From NCBI GenBank assembly GCA_035275265.1, contig DATENC010000025.1, forward strand, positions 10,230 to 74,229: DNA of 64,000 nt, written 5' to 3'. The DNA is from Burkholderiales bacterium. Its GTDB lineage: Bacteria; Pseudomonadota; Gammaproteobacteria; Burkholderiales; JACQAP01. This document shows, piece after piece, positions 19,299-25,562 of this stretch. The notes beneath the pieces were generated by a model. The model was given only the letters and a program-made list of their open reading frames with translations. It did not search any database and was not told where the DNA came from. Made by a program: the position numbers and the translations under genes. Position 1 is the first letter of the stretch, and each line of letters starts with the position of its first letter.

Positions 19299-20744
19299 AT
19301 GCAGCTTTACTACCCGCGCTCGTTTCTGAAGTTGATTCTGGCCGGTTTTTCGCTCGCCGTTCTTCCGCTTATTTTCGCACTCATCAACAACGCCTTCTCG
19401 ATCAACCAGCTCGCCAACCACACGCAACGGGTGGTTTATCAAGCGGTACAGGCCACCCAGAACAGCCGATTCCTGATCGAGCAGATCACCAACATGGAGC
19501 GCAGCGTCCGGCAGTTCGCAATCATCGGCGAGCCATCGCTGCTTCAAGGCTACGGACTGGCCCATGAGCGCTTCGTGGATACCGCCCGCAGGATGGCGAC
19601 GCTGCCGCTGGATTCTCGGCAGAAATTAGCGCTGGAGGCCCTGCGCGCACGAGAATCTGCTTTGTTCGATCGAATCGGACAGTCGGGAGCAAAGGCGAAC
19701 GTAATTGGGTCCGCGGTAGCGGAGCTTGCCACCCTGTCCGACGCGGCACGCGCGCTCGACGACCAAGGCAACTTGCTGGTGGACCGCGAAGTCGACACCA
19801 TGCAGAAAATGGCCGGCGAAGTGCAGCGCTTCATTTACTGGCAGTTGCTGGCATTGGTGCCGATCGCACTATTGCTGGTCGTTGCCGCGACGCTTCTGAT
19901 TTCCAAGCCGATCGCCCAGCTCGAATCGGCGATCCAGAACCTTGGGGAGGGCAGATTCGAAGAGCGCATCACCGTCAGCGGCCCGGCCGACCTGGAATCC
20001 CTGGGACATCAGCTCGACTGGCTGCGTCTGCGTTTGCTCGATCTGGAAGAACAGAAATCGCGTTTTCTGCGCCATGTGTCGCACGAATTGAAGACTCCCC
20101 TGACTGCGCTGCGGGAAGGCGTGGAACTTCTGTCCGATGAGGTGACCGGGAAAATGACCGCCGGCCAGTTCGAAATCGCGCGCATCCTCAGACAGAACAC
20201 GTTGAGGCTGCAGAAGCTGATCGAGGACTTGTTAAACTATCACAGCGTCCAGTTTCACACGTCGGCACTGACGTTCTCGCAATTCGACCTGAAAGTTATG
20301 GTGACGCGGGTTGCGCAACAGCATTCGTTGACGATGCGCAGCAAGAATTTGAGCCTGAACCTGTCCGCCTCAGACCTCCAGATTGAAGCCGACGAAAACA
20401 AGATAGAGGTGATCATAGACAATCTGCTGTCCAATGCCATTAAGTTCTCCCCCGCCGGCGGCACCATCCGCGTGCAGCTTCGCCGGCGTGGCTCAGATGC
20501 TGTCATCGACTTCATGGATGAAGGTCCGGGCATTTCTCCCGAAGAACGCGGGCGCGTGTTCGAGCCGTTCTACCTGGGCAACACCGTGTACACCGGTCCG
20601 GTGAAAGGTACGGGGCTCGGGCTGGCGATCGTCCGCGAATATGCGACCGCGCACCAGGGCAGCGCAGAAATCATCGACGATGGCAATCCCGGCGCACACC
20701 TGCGAGTGGTTCTGCCGACCCGGCAGATGGAGGCAGCAGCATGA
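19299..20744 (+). CDS. sensor histidine kinase (two TM, HAMP, HisKA, HATPase), GlrK/QseE-like
   Basis: H-box FLRHVSHELKTPLTAL, N-box DNLLSNAIKF, G-boxes DEGPGI and GTGLGLAIV. Gene order is kinase, lipoprotein, sigma54 regulator. Confidence 0.85.
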   Translation: MQLYYPRSFLKLILAGFSLAVLPLIFALINNAFSINQLANHTQRVVYQAVQATQNSRFLIEQITNMERSVRQFAIIGEPSLLQGYGLAHERFVDTARRMATLPLDSRQKLALEALRARESALFDRIGQSGAKANVIGSAVAELATLSDAARALDDQGNLLVDREVDTMQKMAGEVQRFIYWQLLALVPIALLLVVAATLLISKPIAQLESAIQNLGEGRFEERITVSGPADLESLGHQLDWLRLRLLDLEEQKSRFLRHVSHELKTPLTALREGVELLSDEVTGKMTAGQFEIARILRQNTLRLQKLIEDLLNYHSVQFHTSALTFSQFDLKVMVTRVAQQHSLTMRSKNLSLNLSASDLQIEADENKIEVIIDNLLSNAIKFSPAGGTIRVQLRRRGSDAVIDFMDEGPGISPEERGRVFEPFYLGNTVYTGPVKGTGLGLAIVREYATAHQGSAEIIDDGNPGAHLRVVLPTRQMEAAA

Positions 20745-21325
20745 TTAGGCCGCATGTGGCGTCAGTCATTGTACTGGCCACCCTTCTCGGCGGCTGCATG
20801 GCAGCCACCGAACCGAACACGCGTCGCGACCCGTGGTACCAGGCCGCGGTCGAACCCTTACAAGGCGATGATACCCGCGCACTGCACTTCTACGATAACG
20901 CGCTCAAGCTCAAGGGAGCCGAACTTGCACGCAAACTCGAATCGACCCGCCAGGAATTCGAGAAAGACAAGTCCGGACTCAACCGGATGCAGCTAGCCAT
21001 GCTACTGTCGATGCCGGGCACCGGGTTTCGCGATGACCCGGCGGCATTGACCCTTGTTCAGCCTTTCTTGAATGACAAGGCCCACGAAAATTCTGTGCTG
21101 CGTCCTCTGGCCTTGATGCTTCATTCACAACTTTCCGAACTCAAACGGCTAGACGAGCAGCGTTCCGAACTCAAACGGCTTGAAGAAGCGCTTCAACAGC
21201 AAACGGCAAAGACCAGGGAAGAACAGCGCCGTGCGGATGCCCTGCAACAGAAACTGGAAGCCATTCTGGAAATGGAAATGAAAATGATCGAGCGTGAGCA
21301 AGCGGCGCCACCGAAGAGGCCATGA
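20741..21325 (+). CDS. lipoprotein with coiled-coil C-terminus, QseG-like position
   Basis: Lipobox VLATLLGGC. ATGA overlaps with both flanking genes. Heptad-like C-terminus with a duplicated SELKRL segment. Confidence 0.6.
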   Translation: MIRPHVASVIVLATLLGGCMAATEPNTRRDPWYQAAVEPLQGDDTRALHFYDNALKLKGAELARKLESTRQEFEKDKSGLNRMQLAMLLSMPGTGFRDDPAALTLVQPFLNDKAHENSVLRPLALMLHSQLSELKRLDEQRSELKRLEEALQQQTAKTREEQRRADALQQKLEAILEMEMKMIEREQAAPPKRP

Positions 21326-22674
21326 TCATGTCAAAGGCGCGAGTTCTCATCGTCGACGACGACCCCGATTTACTCCGGCTCTTGACATTGCGTCTGGAGG
21401 GCTCGGGTTACGCAGTGGAGAGCGCTGACAGTGCGGAGCGCGCGTTGGCAAGGTTGTCTGCGTCCACCCCGCAACTGGTGATAACCGATCTGCGCATGAG
21501 CGGAATGGACGGCATGGCGCTGTTCGAAAACATTCACAAGAGCAACCCGGCGTTACCAGTGATCATCCTCACGGCGCATGGCACCATTCCGGATGCGGTT
21601 GCTGCAACCCAGCGCGGCGTGTTCGGGTATCTCACCAAGCCTTTCGACAGCAAGGACCTGCTGGTGCAAGTCGAAAGGGCCATCACCCTCAGCGGTAGCC
21701 ACGCAGAGAAGACGGCGGGCAACGCCGACTGGCGCATCGAAATCATAACGCGTAGCCCGGCGATGGAAAGTATTCTGGGTAAGGCCAAGCTGGTGGCGGC
21801 CAGCGACGCTAGCGTGCTGATCCGCGGAGACAGCGGCACCGGCAAGGAACTGCTGGCGCGGGCGGTACACCGGGCGAGTCCGCGCGTGGAAAAGCCGTTT
21901 GTTGCGGTCAACTGTGGCGCCATTCCCGAACAATTGCTGGAGTCCGAGTTGTTCGGCCACATGAAAGGCTCGTTCACAGGCGCCGCTCGAGATTACAAGG
22001 GGCTGTTCCAGTCAGCGGAAGGAGGTACGGTTTTCCTCGATGAGATCGGCGACATGCCGTTGCCGCTGCAGGTAAAGCTGCTGCGTGTGCTACAGGAAAA
22101 AGAGATCCGGGCAATCGGATCCACTCAAACGATTCCCGTGGACGTGCGCATCATCTCCGCGACTCATCGCAACCTCGAGGATGCAATCAAGATCGGGGCG
22201 TTCCGCGAAGACCTTTATTACCGGCTCAATGTCGTATCGTTCGCTCTGCCCTCGCTCGTCGACCGGCGCGAAGACATCCCAGTTCTCGGTGCGTATTTCC
22301 TCGCGCACCTTGCCGACAAATACAAGAAACCCCTCAACGGATTTGCCTCCGAGGCGATGGAAATTCTGGTGAAATCGGCGTGGCCCGGAAACGTGCGCGA
22401 ACTGTACAACGTCGTTGAACAGGCGGTCGCGTTGTCGACCACGCCAATCATTCCGCCCGCGCTCGTGGAAAATGCAATCCGCGGCCAAACTGCCGAACTG
22501 TCGTCCTTCGAGGCGGCACGAAGTGAGTTCGAGCGCGAATACCTCGCCAAACTACTCAAAATCACCGGTGGCAACGTCACCCAAGCAGCGCGACTTGCCA
22601 AACGCAATCGCACCGAGTTCTACAAATTGTTGCAGCGGCACCACCTGGATCCCAAATTGTTCAAAGCGCTTTAG
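21322..22674 (+). CDS. sigma54-dependent response regulator (REC + AAA+ + Fis HTH), GlrR/QseF-like
   Basis: REC domain (VLIVDDDPD...DLRMSGMDG), Walker A GDSGTGKE, intact sigma54-contact loop GSFTGA, C-terminal HTH GGNVTQAARLAKRNRTEFYKLL. Confidence 0.9.
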   Translation: MIMSKARVLIVDDDPDLLRLLTLRLEGSGYAVESADSAERALARLSASTPQLVITDLRMSGMDGMALFENIHKSNPALPVIILTAHGTIPDAVAATQRGVFGYLTKPFDSKDLLVQVERAITLSGSHAEKTAGNADWRIEIITRSPAMESILGKAKLVAASDASVLIRGDSGTGKELLARAVHRASPRVEKPFVAVNCGAIPEQLLESELFGHMKGSFTGAARDYKGLFQSAEGGTVFLDEIGDMPLPLQVKLLRVLQEKEIRAIGSTQTIPVDVRIISATHRNLEDAIKIGAFREDLYYRLNVVSFALPSLVDRREDIPVLGAYFLAHLADKYKKPLNGFASEAMEILVKSAWPGNVRELYNVVEQAVALSTTPIIPPALVENAIRGQTAELSSFEAARSEFEREYLAKLLKITGGNVTQAARLAKRNRTEFYKLLQRHHLDPKLFKAL

Positions 22675-22834
22675 CCGATATTGTCATCTCGCCCCGGGAC
22701 GACATGAATTTTCCGCTCTTTTCTTAAGCGGTTAGGCTGCGATCGGGCGGCATCGTCGCTGACTGGCGACAACCACACCCGTTGCCAAGTCGTTGGCGCA
22801 GCATAACTATCTGCCACGATTACGTAAATGTGTT

Positions 22835-22851
22835 CTGGCACGAAGGCTGCT
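22835..22851 (+). promoter_or_regulatory. sigma54 (-24/-12) promoter
   Basis: cTGGCACgaaggCTGCt has the canonical GG-N10-GC spacing. It lies 160 nt after the regulator's stop and about 105 nt before the ATG at 22957. Confidence 0.6.
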
Positions 22852-22956
22852 TTTTAAGTCTACTGAAAGCGGCTGCGGATGGCGGCTCCAAGAGGAACCG
22901 AGCCCGCCGCGCACGGAAGCGAAACAATCAATTACAAGATCTCAAACTAGAAGAAA

Positions 22957-23505
22957 ATGGACCAGCAAAGTCGCCTGCTACCCCTCCTGACTATCGCTGC
23001 TGCGGCATCGGTTGTAGCGTTCAGCGGCATCGGAATCGCGGCAATAACGGGGCACCTCTCGATCGCGCGATCGAGCCTCAATCCCTTCTCCGCGTTCGGC
23101 GGCGCAGTTGTGATAGCGGATTCCGGCTCGAGCCGGGTGGTTTCCGGCATTACCCACGCAGGGTTGACCCGTAGCACCGGGGAAATCACGGCGCATAGCA
23201 AGCCGTTGAATTTCCGCCCCGGTGCACGCCTTCCCGCGCGCAAGCCGTCCTGTCCAAACTGCGGGGTGGTGGATTCCATCAAACCGCAACAGACAAGCGG
23301 TGGCGACAGCAAACTTGCCGCGGCGCTCGGCACGACAGGCAGGGCCTATCAGATCGACAACGACAAACTCAGTGCCTTCAGCTTTGTCGTTGTTGTGCGC
23401 ATGGAAAACGGCACCCTGCGCACCATCCACGAGAATCAACGTCCACCGTTCAGCATCGGCGAGCGAGTCCAACTGGTCAACGGTACGGTCATTCCACTGG
23501 GTTGA
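22957..23505 (+). CDS. membrane-anchored protein with CxxC motif and C-terminal beta-rich domain, unknown function
   Basis: 182 aa. N-terminal TM helix LLPLLTIAAAASVVAFSGIGIAAI. CPNCGVVDSIKP motif and a YQ...FVVVVRMENGTLRTI...GERVQLVNG tail, as in small envelope proteins of Betaproteobacteria. Flanked by the sigma54 promoter and a terminator. Confidence 0.55.
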   Translation: MDQQSRLLPLLTIAAAASVVAFSGIGIAAITGHLSIARSSLNPFSAFGGAVVIADSGSSRVVSGITHAGLTRSTGEITAHSKPLNFRPGARLPARKPSCPNCGVVDSIKPQQTSGGDSKLAAALGTTGRAYQIDNDKLSAFSFVVVVRMENGTLRTIHENQRPPFSIGERVQLVNGTVIPLG

Positions 23506-23617
23506 ACTTACAAAGCAACGAGTTCGATGCGTGGGTTGTAATCCTTAACGACATCGTGGAGACTTAATAGAGTATTCGCTCGAACAACTAAATCCCTCAA
23601 TGCGCTTTTGCTTTTTC

Positions 23618-23650
23618 GACGCCCGATTTCCTCCCTTGTCGGGCGTTTTC
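23618..23650 (+). terminator. rho-independent terminator
   Basis: GACGCCCGA-tttcctcccttg-TCGGGCGT followed by TTTC/TTGTC. Confidence 0.6.
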
Positions 23651-23963
23651 TTGTCTGCGCTCTTCTCGCGGGTGGCCGTGGCATTCGAGAAAGTGTCTTC
23701 CTCAGCGGCTGCTCAGGATGCCGGCCTCACCGCTGCGGAAAATAGGCTATGCGAAACAAACTGGTGCCGGGGCTTGGCAATCCCGCGTTTTCCCAGCAGG
23801 ATTGGCAAACCGACGAACCTCAGAAAGGTAGCCAACTTGGTCCGTGAAGTCGCGCGGCGGAAACAGTCAATCATGAAGGCCCATTCACCCTCCGGTCCCA
23901 AACACTTTGACTACGCTTGTCAACAACAGACCGCAGACGCCGATGACCGGAACCGGTGAAGTC

Positions 23964-24203
23964 ATGAAGAAACCGATGTTGCTGCTGATAGCCACCATGT
24001 TGTCCGCATGCGCAGCCCAGCAGAAAGAGCCCAATGTGAATTTGGGCGGCTACCCACCCGAATTCCGTGCTGGATATCTCGACGGTTGCGAAAGTGCCAA
24101 GCAGGCCGGCCAGAAGAAAGACATGCAGCGCTTCAAGCGTGACCCCCAATACGCCACCGGCTGGCAAGACGGTTTCGACATCTGCAGCAAGCACAAGAAC
24201 TAA
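23964..24203 (+). CDS. small lipoprotein
   Basis: MKKPMLLLIATMLSAC lipobox. Mature part has paired Cys (GYLDGCES ... GFDICSK). ATG 23964 is preferred over the longer ORF from 23907. Confidence 0.6.
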   Translation: MKKPMLLLIATMLSACAAQQKEPNVNLGGYPPEFRAGYLDGCESAKQAGQKKDMQRFKRDPQYATGWQDGFDICSKHKN

Positions 24204-24371
24204 CCGGCCGCTCCCGCCCGCCGGTTCCCACCTGTCGCGTATGACTCATCAGCCTGCGGCCGATGCGCACGGCTGTGTATACTCGTGCCGTATCGAATGC
24301 GTGACCGCCCGACCGGCTGGTTGGGTCCAGGGTTGCACTGCCCGTTCAGCATACTTCTCCAGGAGACCGCG

Positions 24372-25562
24372 ATGAACGCTCCCCTTACCCGCCCGTCTTT
24401 TCGCTGGGAGGATCCCCTGTTTTTCGACGAGCAGCTCAGTGACGAGGAGCGCATGGTGCGCGACTCGGCGCGCGCCTACTGCGATGAAAAATTGATGCCG
24501 CGCGTTGTGAAGGCAAATCGTCATGAAGAATTTGACCGCGCCGTACTGTCCGAAATGGGCGGCATGGGATTCTTTGGCCCAACCATTGAAGGCTACGGCT
24601 GCGCCGGCCTAAATCACGTTTGCTATGGCCTTATCACCCGCGAATTGGAACGGGTGGACAGCGGCTACCGTTCTTCGATGAGCGTGCAGTCGTCGTTGGT
24701 GATGTACCCGATATATGCCTATGGCACAGAGGCACAGCGACAGAAGTATCTGCCGGGCTTGGCGAAGGGCGACCTGGTCGGCGCCTTCGGCCTGACCGAG
24801 CCAGACCATGGCTCCGACGCTGGCAGCATGATTACCCGAGCGAAAAAAACCGGGGGCGGGTATTTGCTGAATGGCGCGAAGATGTGGATCACCCACTCAC
24901 CCGTCGCCGACGTGATGGTCGTCTGGGCCAAGGACGATCGCGACGTTATCCGCGGCTTCATTCTCGAACGCGGGATGAAGGGGCTGAGCGCTCCGAAAAT
25001 AGAGGGCAAATTCAGCCTGCGGGTTTCGGTTACCGGAGAAATCGTCATGGACGACGTCTTCGTTCCTGACGAGAATCTGCTTCCCAACGTCGAGGGGCTG
25101 AAGGGCCCGTTCGGCTGCCTTAACAAGGCGCGTTATGGCATTTCCTGGGGTGCGCTAGGGGCAGCCGAATTCTGTTGGCACGCGGCTCGCAACTACGTGA
25201 TGGAACGCAAGCAGTTCGGCCGTCCGTTGGGGGCGAATCAGTTGATCCAACTGAAACTTGCCAACATGCAGACCGAAATTGCGCTCGGGCTGCAAACGGT
25301 TCTGCGCGTCGGACGTCTGATGGATGAGGGACGCGCGGCACCGGAGATGATCTCCCTGATTAAACGCAACTCGGCGGGAAAAGCGCTCGACATCGCTCGG
25401 CTGGCGCGCGACATGCACGGCGGCAACGGTGTCTCGGACGAATACCATGTCATACGCCACGCCATGAACCTCGAGGCGGTGAACACTTACGAGGGCACGC
25501 ATGACATTCACGCTTTGATTCTCGGCCGGGCACAAACTGGCATCCAGGCCTTCACCGGATAA
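24372..25562 (+). CDS. gcdH: glutaryl-CoA dehydrogenase
   Basis: [28 protein letters not shown]..., [10 protein letters not shown], and full acyl-CoA dehydrogenase length and layout typical of GcdH. ATG 24372 ([10 protein letters not shown]). Confidence 0.85.

Follow-up and report, generated by a model that had tools for sequence, protein, structure and literature searches.

A GlrR-type, sigma-54-dependent promoter probably drives the gene of a SlyB-related membrane protein in uncultured Burkholderiales

Introduction

In Escherichia coli, the response regulator QseF/GlrR switches on sigma-54-dependent promoters at glmY and rpoE, and integration host factor (IHF) is needed at glmY (PMC6075780, PMC3045617). 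The kinase of this system needs QseG, and glmY is located directly upstream of the operon (PMC6075780, PMC3045617). The system (GlrK/QseG/GlrR, or QseEGF) is described as conserved in Enterobacteriaceae (PMC6075780). It has been studied almost solely in this family, where its direct targets are glmY, rpoE and, in some species, glmZ; the signal it responds to is still poorly defined. In this work we analyse a similar module, comprising a kinase, a lipoprotein and a sigma-54-dependent response regulator, together with the open reading frame (ORF) of 182 codons that follows it, in a 64-kb stretch of DNA from an uncultured soil Burkholderiales bacterium. This stretch is hereafter called the window, and all window coordinates refer to its forward strand, position 1 being its first letter.

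Three other described systems are relevant to this locus. SlyB is a PhoPQ-induced outer-membrane lipoprotein with a glycine-zipper domain (PF05433; structure 7ojf), and its zipper hairpin builds lipid nanodomains. The conserved 3' end of a stress-induced mRNA was the hallmark that revealed CpxQ, a small RNA (sRNA) cut from the 3' untranslated region (3'UTR) of cpxP (PMC9438474). Betaproteobacteria are known to have C/U-rich sRNAs that bind to ribosome-binding sites by base pairing, such as S17 of Bordetella pertussis and bdhR1 of Burkholderia (PMC11722255).

An earlier reading of the window, made from the letters alone (the sequence-only reading), had placed a -24/-12 element behind the regulator gene, followed by a leader of about 95 nt, the 182-aa ORF and a terminator, and had taken the ORF to be the target of the adjacent module. 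All these elements are found where it had placed them, with the ORF at 22957–23505 and the terminator hairpin at 23618–23647 (Table 1).

Results

The module is similar to GlrK/QseG/GlrR

The window resembles the E. coli system in the order of its genes, which is kinase, lipoprotein and sigma-54 response regulator, all on the same strand and overlapping. With regard to the regulator, Pfam identifies a receiver, an AAA+ domain for sigma-54 interaction (Sigma54_activat) with a GSFTGA motif, and an HTH_8 domain. Its identity to E. coli GlrR is 58% over the entire length, and the GlrR model of NCBIfam is its top match, with 634.5 bits, about 200 bits ahead of the next model. The stretch RNRTEFYKLL of the recognition helix is identical in both proteins, so the same DNA specificity as for GlrR is expected. 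Strict orthology to GlrR, rather than mere relatedness, is likely, if not proven. The regulator is the sole GAFTGA-type protein, and thereby the sole sigma-54 activator, of the window.

The kinase exhibits two membrane segments and the Pfam domains HAMP, HisKA and HATPase_c. It shares 33% identity with E. coli GlrK over its full length (473 aligned residues, E = 1e-68) and has the same domain order. The operon of the GlrR-like regulator also carries a GlrK-like gene, as expected for a cognate kinase in a GlrK/QseG/GlrR system.

In order to compare the locus with its relatives, the family of the ORF was scanned against 185,579 species genomes, which gave 38 loci, all of them from uncultured Burkholderiales or Betaproteobacteria. 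The hosts of the unit are uncultured bacteria of soils and sediments. Every locus that is long enough shows the gene order kinase, lipoprotein, regulator and ORF. The lipoprotein gene lies between the kinase and the regulator genes in all loci, which is the position of qseG in E. coli. The protein of the window and QseG correspond in position, size and lipobox only, and, unlike its E. coli counterpart, the window lipoprotein is not recognisable as QseG; searches of Pfam and NCBIfam assigned it to no family. It may be an analogue of QseG, or a QseG that has diverged beyond recognition. The lipoprotein evolves fast, with 31–78% identity among loci, compared to 70–97% for the regulator.

The predicted sigma-54 promoter is conserved in 35 of 35 intergenic regions

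The regulator gene ends with a TAG stop codon at 22672–22674 and is separated by 282 nt from the ATG of the ORF at 22957, a start supported by the conserved N-terminus of 22 homologues. Within this gap, TGGCACgaaggCTGC is present at 22836–22850, 161 nt past the stop codon, and its GG (22837–22838) and GC (22849–22850) show the exact 10-nt spacing of a -24/-12 element. Read over 22836–22851, TGGCACGAAGGCTGCT has a single mismatch to the core of TGGCAC-N5-TTGCW. The sequence-only reading had suggested a scan with a weight matrix; in such a scan, with a matrix modelled on published sigma-54 promoter compilations, this site obtained the highest score of both strands of the window (15.3). The second-best site (14.8), at 25176, is inside the coding sequence of an acyl-CoA dehydrogenase.

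The promoter call is convincing because of its conservation across loci, and not because of its motif score. Promoter and site counts cover 35 regulator-to-ORF intergenic regions of the related loci. The pattern [TCG]GGCA[CT]-N6-TGC is present in all 35, for an expectation of about 0.02 per region, given the background rate of the pattern in the rest of the same loci. The element is kept even in the clade with 34–37% identity in the ORF, where the remaining spacer cannot be aligned. Among loci, it stands 64–199 nt 5' of the ATG and is co-oriented with the ORF.

The promoter geometry predicts a start 12 nt past the GC element. The length of the predicted leader varies between 64 and 199 nt among loci, and its sequence is not conserved between clades. 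A riboswitch or sRNA in the leader was considered and rejected, as its structure is unremarkable (z = 0.10), no Rfam family matches, and neither length nor sequence is conserved between clades.

The spacer contains GlrR-type palindromes at fixed positions

A footprint of 19 diverse spacers, anchored on the -24/-12 element, reveals three conserved islands with fixed spacing. Offsets are counted from the T of TGGCAC, and the predicted start (about 22862) is used for the other centre positions. The first island is tgtcgcc-N4-gGcgac, from -82 to -65; the second is cAA-N5-TG-ttT, from -32 to -19; the third, tTTGGCACg-N3-g-TGCTt, is the promoter itself.

With regard to the first island, the loci keep a palindrome, TGTCGY-N6-RCGACA, centred 73 nt 5' of the promoter element. 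In the window this is CGTCGCTGACTGGCGACA, with its centre at about -99.5 from the predicted start. TGTCN10GACA is the GlrR consensus that was determined experimentally at the glmY and glmZ promoters of E. coli and Yersinia (PMC3045617). Site 2 of glmY in E. coli K-12, TGTCGCTTTCTGGCGACA, differs from the window site at the first base and in the central spacer only. A copy with at most one mismatch to TGTC-N10-GACA, centred between -72 and -75 from the T of TGGCAC, is present in 31 of the 35 loci, and the remaining four retain GTCG...CGAC at this place. GTCGY-N6-RCGAC occurs once in the 64-kb window, at the proximal site, for a mean of 0.4 in shuffled sequences.

A second palindrome, TCTCGCCCCGGGACGACA, is centred at about -166.5, some 67 nt 5' of the proximal site. 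A distal copy with at most one mismatch is found at offsets of -139 to -141 in 17 of the 35 loci and is perfect in 13 of these, as in TGTCGTCCCGGGACGACA. Its outer half-sites are kept while its centre varies, and in the clade of locus L026 only the outer half-sites survive. We also considered this palindrome as a terminator of the regulator operon and rejected it, as its RNA fold is poor (z between -0.5 and -1.2 against shuffles) and a proper U-tract is missing. The poor fold, the missing U-tract and the retention of the outer half-sites alone fit better with a protein site that binds a dimer. The sequence-only reading had noticed an inverted repeat here, TGTC-N15-GACA (22682–22685 and 22701–22704), and had held its spacing to differ from that of the GlrR site. 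The letters are present, but the repeat is out of register: it uses a fortuitous TGTC five bases left of the degenerate half-site and overlaps the distal site at 22687–22704, so the odd spacing disappears. The actual spacing is that of GlrR, TGTC-N10-GACA, and the best-conserved site, at 22754–22771, had been overlooked.

On the minus strand, the second island reads as a match to the IHF consensus WATCARNNNNTTR (PMC3045617), with at most two mismatches to WATCAANNNNTTR in 23 of the 35 loci. As in E. coli, the palindrome is present in more than one copy, an IHF-like motif is placed between sites and promoter in most relatives of the window, and the target immediately adjoins the operon. The arrangement differs in that the two window sites are at about -99.5 and -166.5, whereas glmY of E. 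coli is preceded by three, with centres at about -125, -188 and -221. Moreover, the window target is protein-coding and 3' of the regulator, whereas the E. coli target is the GlmY sRNA gene, 5' of the kinase; neither GlmY, GlmZ nor another Rfam family is found in the window at gathering thresholds. The host also differs, being betaproteobacterial.

Taken together, we consider it probable that a GlrR-type, sigma-54-dependent promoter drives the ORF, and that the unit is the dedicated output of a betaproteobacterial GlrK/lipoprotein/GlrR-type module. The footprint over 35 loci and the near-identity of the DNA-binding helix of the regulator to that of GlrR support the proposal that the ORF is the target of its neighbour.

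Weighing the regulatory reading

Several observations weigh against this reading. The sequence-only reading had regarded the element at 22836 as the only convincing sigma-54 promoter in 64 kb. It does rank first, but the motif alone is not above chance: the expectation for sites with at most two mismatches to TGGCAC-N5-TTGC in the window is 82 ± 8, and 93 are found, eight of them with a single mismatch. The score of the regulator is lower than the 763-bit equivalog cut-off of the NCBIfam GlrR model, similarity between the window lipoprotein and E. coli QseG is not detectable, and rpoN is not within the 64-kb window, in which no RpoN box is present. Both palindromes of the window have one mismatch to TGTC-N10-GACA, perfect copies being found at fixed offsets in many relatives. 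The IHF-like match is weak in the window and in its closest relatives, which keep just TAA-N5-TG. Every related locus comes from an uncultured organism, and the loci share extended synteny, from the upstream genes through the acyl-CoA dehydrogenase gene, so adjacency alone is not independent evidence. With regard to the product of the ORF, about two thirds of the AlphaFold model is of low confidence, the Foldseek matches are not significant (E ≥ 0.07), and the proposed function rests on remote homology.

The chance frequency of the motif would agree with a non-functional match, the ORF being expressed by read-through from the regulator operon, behind which no convincing terminator was found before the ORF, or by an unrecognised sigma-70-type promoter. 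This is extremely unlikely, as all 35 loci have the element, with its distance from the palindrome constant despite divergence of the DNA around it, and as no sigma-70-like promoter was found in 22400–24300. Another possibility is that the sigma-54 promoter is activated by a different enhancer-binding protein, encoded elsewhere, and that the palindromes are not sites of the adjacent regulator. Only 64 kb of the genome are visible, and the regulator falls short of the GlrR cut-off. Nevertheless, the conserved palindrome is the same as the site defined by experiment for GlrR, the recognition helix of the adjacent regulator is that of GlrR, and this regulator adjoins the promoter in every locus, which makes an activator from elsewhere very unlikely.

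The preferred reading, control by the adjacent GlrR-type regulator, implies the following mechanism. The kinase, probably in concert with the lipoprotein whose gene separates those of kinase and regulator, would phosphorylate the regulator, the dimers of which would bind the strongly conserved proximal palindrome and the weaker distal one. The DNA between sites and promoter would be bent, probably by IHF, and the AAA+ domain of the regulator would remodel the sigma-54 RNA polymerase at TGGCAC-N5-CTGC, with a start near 22862. The transcript would comprise the 95-nt leader and one ORF, and would end at the hairpin with its U-tract.

The ORF product is related to SlyB

The product of the ORF has no family in Pfam or NCBIfam. 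In a collection clustered at 90% it has 195 homologues, all from uncultured Burkholderiales or metagenomes and nearly all unnamed, and the databases contain an identical protein (VJT81_13640), annotated as hypothetical, from a metagenome-assembled "Burkholderiales bacterium". The sequence-only reading had described an N-terminal transmembrane anchor, a CPNCG motif and a beta-rich C-terminus, all of which hold up. Two AlphaFold runs gave a helix at residues 7–30 (24 residues) and five C-terminal strands with a pLDDT of about 84–88, and CPNCG corresponds to residues 99–103. In the alignment of homologues, the N-terminal hydrophobic helix is strongly conserved, with the pattern G24-x3-A28-x3-G32, as is a segment HxGLTR...FRxGAR. 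C99-x-x-C102-G is invariant and is followed by VVDSI (CxxCGVVDSI). After a variable loop, the C-terminus FVVxVRMENGTxRTIxE...PxFxIGERVxLVNG is conserved.

A search with the ORF profile of 1.84 billion representatives (E up to 1e-3) gave 865 proteins. The distant matches exhibit the same N-terminal helix, CxxCG strand and C-terminal strands, and they carry the glycine-zipper domain PF05433 (2TM) between the CxxCG strand and the C-terminal strands. The profile matches these zipper-bearing proteins with E values of 1e-17 to 1e-11, and a joint family profile aligns with E. coli SlyB over the same beta elements (hhalign probability 92%, E = 6.5e-7). The homology and structure searches suggested by the sequence-only reading thereby lead to a SlyB-related family by profile, while Foldseek returned nothing below E = 0.07; SlyB (7ojf_A) was third in both Foldseek runs, among small OB-like barrels, and is not significant. 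Two other assignments were rejected: a search of solved-structure sequences with the family profile gave spurious ankyrin-repeat matches only, and CPNCG is not a zinc ribbon, as it is a single CxxC with a Pfam match far below threshold.

The window protein shares with SlyB a split beta domain, with one strand before the position of the zipper and four after it. It would also share induction by an envelope-sensing two-component system, which for the window protein is predicted. In contrast, the ORF has no PF05433 match, and a variable loop of about 30 residues replaces the zipper hairpin. Its N-terminus has no cysteine, and hence no lipobox, and exhibits a membrane helix of about 25 hydrophobic residues instead. 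The protein further adds the CxxC pair and the conserved HxGLTR segment, and its gene is predicted to be under a sigma-54 activator, whereas SlyB is under PhoP. As both defining features of SlyB, the lipobox and the zipper, are missing, the protein is not to be classed as SlyB. Judged by homology, it is a SlyB relative with a predicted N-terminal membrane anchor in place of the lipobox and with the zipper lost. With the zipper hairpin lost, it cannot work exactly like SlyB. The N-terminal helix most likely serves as an inner-membrane anchor, the remainder of the protein being in the periplasm. A periplasm-facing envelope function is proposed, in which a small SlyB-like beta-barrel, stapled by the CxxC pair, would act in envelope maintenance.

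The membrane helix (residues 7–34; 22957–23060) is among the best-conserved parts of the protein, and likewise in the zipper-bearing relatives. This suggests that the helix may serve helix-helix association rather than passive anchoring.

Four zipper-bearing relatives, from three cultured species and one metagenome contig, were inspected for the same regulatory context. They are not beside such a two-component system, and neither the promoter nor the palindrome is present upstream of them. Control by sigma-54 and GlrR as a general trait of the wider protein family is therefore rejected, and the GlrR-type wiring appears specific to the zipper-less subfamily. A zipper-bearing relative of the ORF in Pseudoduganella aquatica (L041:2403-7622) is found among genes for AsmA, BON, OmpA-like and glycine-zipper proteins and DUF883. 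This cluster of envelope genes fits an envelope role for the wider family.

Small induced proteins can also bind and regulate the sensor of the system that induces them, as MgrB does for PhoQ and CpxP for CpxA. The ORF product could be such a feedback regulator of the kinase instead of an envelope effector: its gene consistently adjoins the system and is probably under its control, the protein is a predicted single-pass membrane protein in which the membrane helix is very conserved and two cysteines, presumably periplasmic, are invariant, and the zipper behind the known activity of SlyB has been lost. However, the membrane helix and CxxCG are shared with the zipper-bearing relatives that are not linked to such systems, which makes them family traits and not adaptations to the kinase. 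We therefore regard feedback on the kinase as unlikely, and retain envelope maintenance as the proposed role.

The hairpin downstream of the ORF is probably conserved as RNA

The mRNA would end at a hairpin, GACGCCCGAT-TTCCTCCCTT-GTCGGGCGTT (23618–23647), followed by TTTTCTT. A stretch of 61 nt around it folds with -21.6 kcal/mol (z = -4.25 against shuffles); a simple terminator scan had missed it as its loop is longer than 8 nt. The relatives exhibit a near-identical AACGCCCGAT-TTCCTCCCTT-ATCGGGCGTT, followed by 7–9 T. The hairpin is found once per locus, on the strand of the ORF and downstream of it, in 31 of the 38 genome loci and in the window. Of the loci without it, two end before its position, L011 lacks it although the sequence there is available, and four belong to the most distant clade. 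A pattern scan of metagenomes gave 74 matches, 68 of which are at this locus; in the other six the sequence is unrelated and the hairpin lacks a following U-tract, and five of these six are one same sequence. A dispersed repeat is rejected on these grounds, the hairpin being single per locus, in the window as well, and nearly confined to this locus in metagenomes.

Among 29 distinct hairpin sequences, 99% of the helix is paired and CCTCCCT in the loop is invariant. One compensatory change between A-U and G-C and several one-sided changes compatible with G-U are observed in the helix, which indicates selection at the RNA level. The stem and the loop UUCCUCCCUU, which is similar to an anti-Shine-Dalgarno sequence, are kept across clades with 34–50% protein identity, and a box of about 14 nt just 5' of the hairpin, UUGCGUGUUUAACG, is largely conserved. 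The hairpin shares the terminator of the mRNA, and it is conserved well beyond the neighbouring non-coding DNA, as is typical of sRNAs of the CpxQ type.

One explanation is an efficient intrinsic terminator, which insulates the unit from the downstream genes without any regulation by RNA. The anatomy, a GC-rich stem of 10 bp with a U-tract, is that of a terminator. Moreover, the 20 invariant columns of the 38 in the hairpin equal, rather than exceed, the best windows of 38 nt in the ORF (21) and in the regulator gene (24). No Rfam family matches the hairpin or the 3' region, and neither a conserved promoter of its own nor a conserved target in the locus was found. The window copy is slightly degenerate, with GCTTTTT in place of GCGTGTTT and an interrupted U-tract. 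On the other hand, termination does not constrain the sequence of the loop, yet CCTCCCT is invariant, and a loop of 10 nt is longer than is typical. The terminators behind the acyl-CoA dehydrogenase genes of these loci served as a control: they have loops of 3–4 nt and are entirely different from one clade to another. The upstream box is conserved too, and the hairpin has been kept through several independent deletions of the flanking genes described below. On balance, we slightly favour the plain terminator.

In addition to terminating the unit, the hairpin may be released as a small RNA, which is conceivable because its loop is invariant and similar to an anti-Shine-Dalgarno sequence. A U-rich stretch, a hairpin and a long U-tail make up the usual module for Hfq binding. 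On this view, the 3' end, comprising the box, the hairpin with its invariant loop and the U-tail, would be released as an anti-Shine-Dalgarno sRNA, and the transcript would have a dual output like that of cpxP/CpxQ. We put this forward as a tentative possibility, one that is rather doubtful at present. The likeness to cpxP/CpxQ comprises an envelope-stress two-component system, a monocistronic mRNA, a periplasm-facing protein, a conserved 3' end by the terminator, and a conserved block of about 45–60 nt, which is near the size of CpxQ. The window differs in that its candidate seed is in the terminator loop and in that its conservation equals that of the best coding stretches.

S17 and bdhR1 ("toxic sRNA", RF02278) are similar in bacterial class, in the C/U-rich single-stranded motif directed against ribosome-binding sites, and in the strong terminator with a long U-run. 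Unlike the window hairpin, S17 is described as a separate gene at another locus, intergenic and transcribed from a sigma-70-type promoter of its own. Infernal matched neither RF02278 nor another family in 22600–24000 with E up to 1, and three related loci gave no match with E up to 0.1.

Three further features of the 3' region were considered and rejected. A second helix 5' of the terminator (AAUGCGC/GCGUGUU) has 69% of its cells paired and is unsupported across clades. A recurring CAAT(G)CGC that resembles a -10 box, taken as part of a promoter for the 3' element, mostly lacks the A of position 2, is not accompanied by a consistent -35 and is missing from several clades; in the loci that bear a peptidase gene it is the ATG region of that gene. 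With regard to pairing of the loop with the ribosome-binding sites of the locus, the kinase site gave -9.0 kcal/mol, which is in the random range (5th percentile -9.6) and is not conserved. The segment 23538–23651 of the window is a weak Infernal match to the alphaproteobacterial sRNA ar14 (21.6 bits for a gathering threshold of 58.8, E = 0.16). This match is probably driven by the C/U-rich loop and is no evidence of membership.

The hairpin has outlasted its flanking genes

Some loci, among them L007, L037 and L026, have an intact gene of the PA2779 family before the hairpin (145 aa; NF033919, 113 bits; DUF6627), and in some loci the hairpin is followed by the gene of a C39 cysteine peptidase of the PA2778 family, which carries TPR repeats (NF033920, 332 bits). 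The window exhibits decayed remnants of both, at about 23506–23600 for the PA2779 family and at 23600–23959 for the PA2778 family, the intact pair being found at L007:6568-7995. An ORF of 119 aa at 23600–23959 fuses the N-terminus of the peptidase to a middle segment, AVAFEKV.

In the intact loci, the peptidase ORF would start 5' of the hairpin, which is within its first 18 codons and encodes ..ARFPPLSGVFF.. of the signal peptide, an unusual arrangement. Conservation of the hairpin as the N-terminal coding sequence of the peptidase was considered and is rejected as a general cause: in most loci both flanking genes are lost while the hairpin is kept, and the reading frame and the ATG are not maintained, so coding constraint does not explain its conservation.

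In nearly all loci, the 182-aa ORF is followed by the gene of a small conserved lipoprotein, which in the window spans 23967–24203 (listed as an ORF from 23907). The product, MKKPMLLLIATMLSAC..., belongs to no assigned family and has two copies of the motif G(Y/W)xDG(C/F). Loci L031, L033, L035 and L036, which form the most distant clade, have this gene 23–65 nt past the ORF with no hairpin between, which suggests that ORF and small lipoprotein were an ancestral operon of two genes under the sigma-54 promoter.

Further downstream, 3' of the acyl-CoA dehydrogenase gene, L007:9941-9997 is a sub-threshold match to the Glutamine-II riboswitch (30.8 bits for a threshold of 33, E = 7e-4). No match to Glutamine-II or another Rfam family reaches its threshold in the window.

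Table 1 Features of the sigma-54 unit and of the adjacent module in the window
Feature	Position	Strand	Basis
Sensor histidine kinase, GlrK/QseE-like	19299–20744	+	Pfam domains, identity to E. coli GlrK, first gene of the conserved trio
Predicted lipoprotein of 194 aa, lipobox LLGGC, coiled-coil-like C-terminus	20741–21325	+	Lipobox in sequence; conserved position
Sigma-54-dependent response regulator, GlrR/QseF-like	21322–22674	+	Pfam, NCBIfam, identity to E. coli GlrR
Distal activator-site candidate TCTCGCCCCGGGACGACA	22687–22704		One mismatch to TGTC-N10-GACA (TCTC...GACA)
Proximal activator-site candidate CGTCGCTGACTGGCGACA, GlrR-type palindrome	22754–22771		Conserved in related loci; match to GlrR consensus
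Position of IHF-like island (cAA-N5-TG-ttT)	22804–22817	-	Conserved island at -32 to -19
Sigma-54 -24/-12 element TGGCACGAAGGCTGC	22836–22850	+	Top weight-matrix score; kept in 35 of 35 loci
Predicted 5' leader, 95 nt	22862–22956	+	Start placed 12 nt past the GC element from promoter geometry
ORF of 182 aa, SlyB-related, no lipobox, no glycine zipper	22957–23505	+	Homologues, profile search, alignment
3'UTR with decayed C-terminal remnant of PA2779-family gene	23506–23617	+	Comparison with L007, L037 and L026
Intrinsic terminator; candidate 3'UTR-derived sRNA or regulatory hairpin	23618–23652	+	10-bp stem, 10-nt loop UUCCUCCCUU, U-tract

Discussion

The locus represents a known regulatory system that has been rewired, in which the same regulator-site pair is associated with a different target gene. 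The sequence-only reading had regarded an output other than an sRNA as a departure from GlrR in E. coli. The target is indeed protein-coding, but rpoE is a precedent for a protein-coding target in E. coli (PMC6075780), and the conserved hairpin leaves an RNA output possible. Going by the description of the QseF-activated rpoE P2 promoter in that source, the two cases are similar in the gene of an envelope-homeostasis protein, the sigma-54 promoter and the upstream sites. They differ in that the E. coli target is a sigma factor elsewhere on the chromosome, whereas the window target is an adjacent membrane protein.

The close relative of GlrR described here keeps the recognition helix, the site sequence and the sigma-54/IHF-type architecture, and yet it is tied to a membrane-anchored, zipper-less relative of SlyB. 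This supports the view that the core business of the GlrR-type system is the cell envelope. It also shows the re-targeting of one regulator-site pair and extends an envelope-sensing system beyond Enterobacteriaceae. As the recognition helix is the same, E. coli GlrR should recognise the sites, so experiments on the unit in that host are feasible. In its conserved 3' hairpin, the unit also offers a candidate for a novel small RNA of Betaproteobacteria, linked to an envelope-stress circuit. If this were true, GlrR-type systems would use a riboregulator as output both in Enterobacteriaceae, with GlmY, and here, with RNAs that are unrelated in sequence, origin and mechanism.

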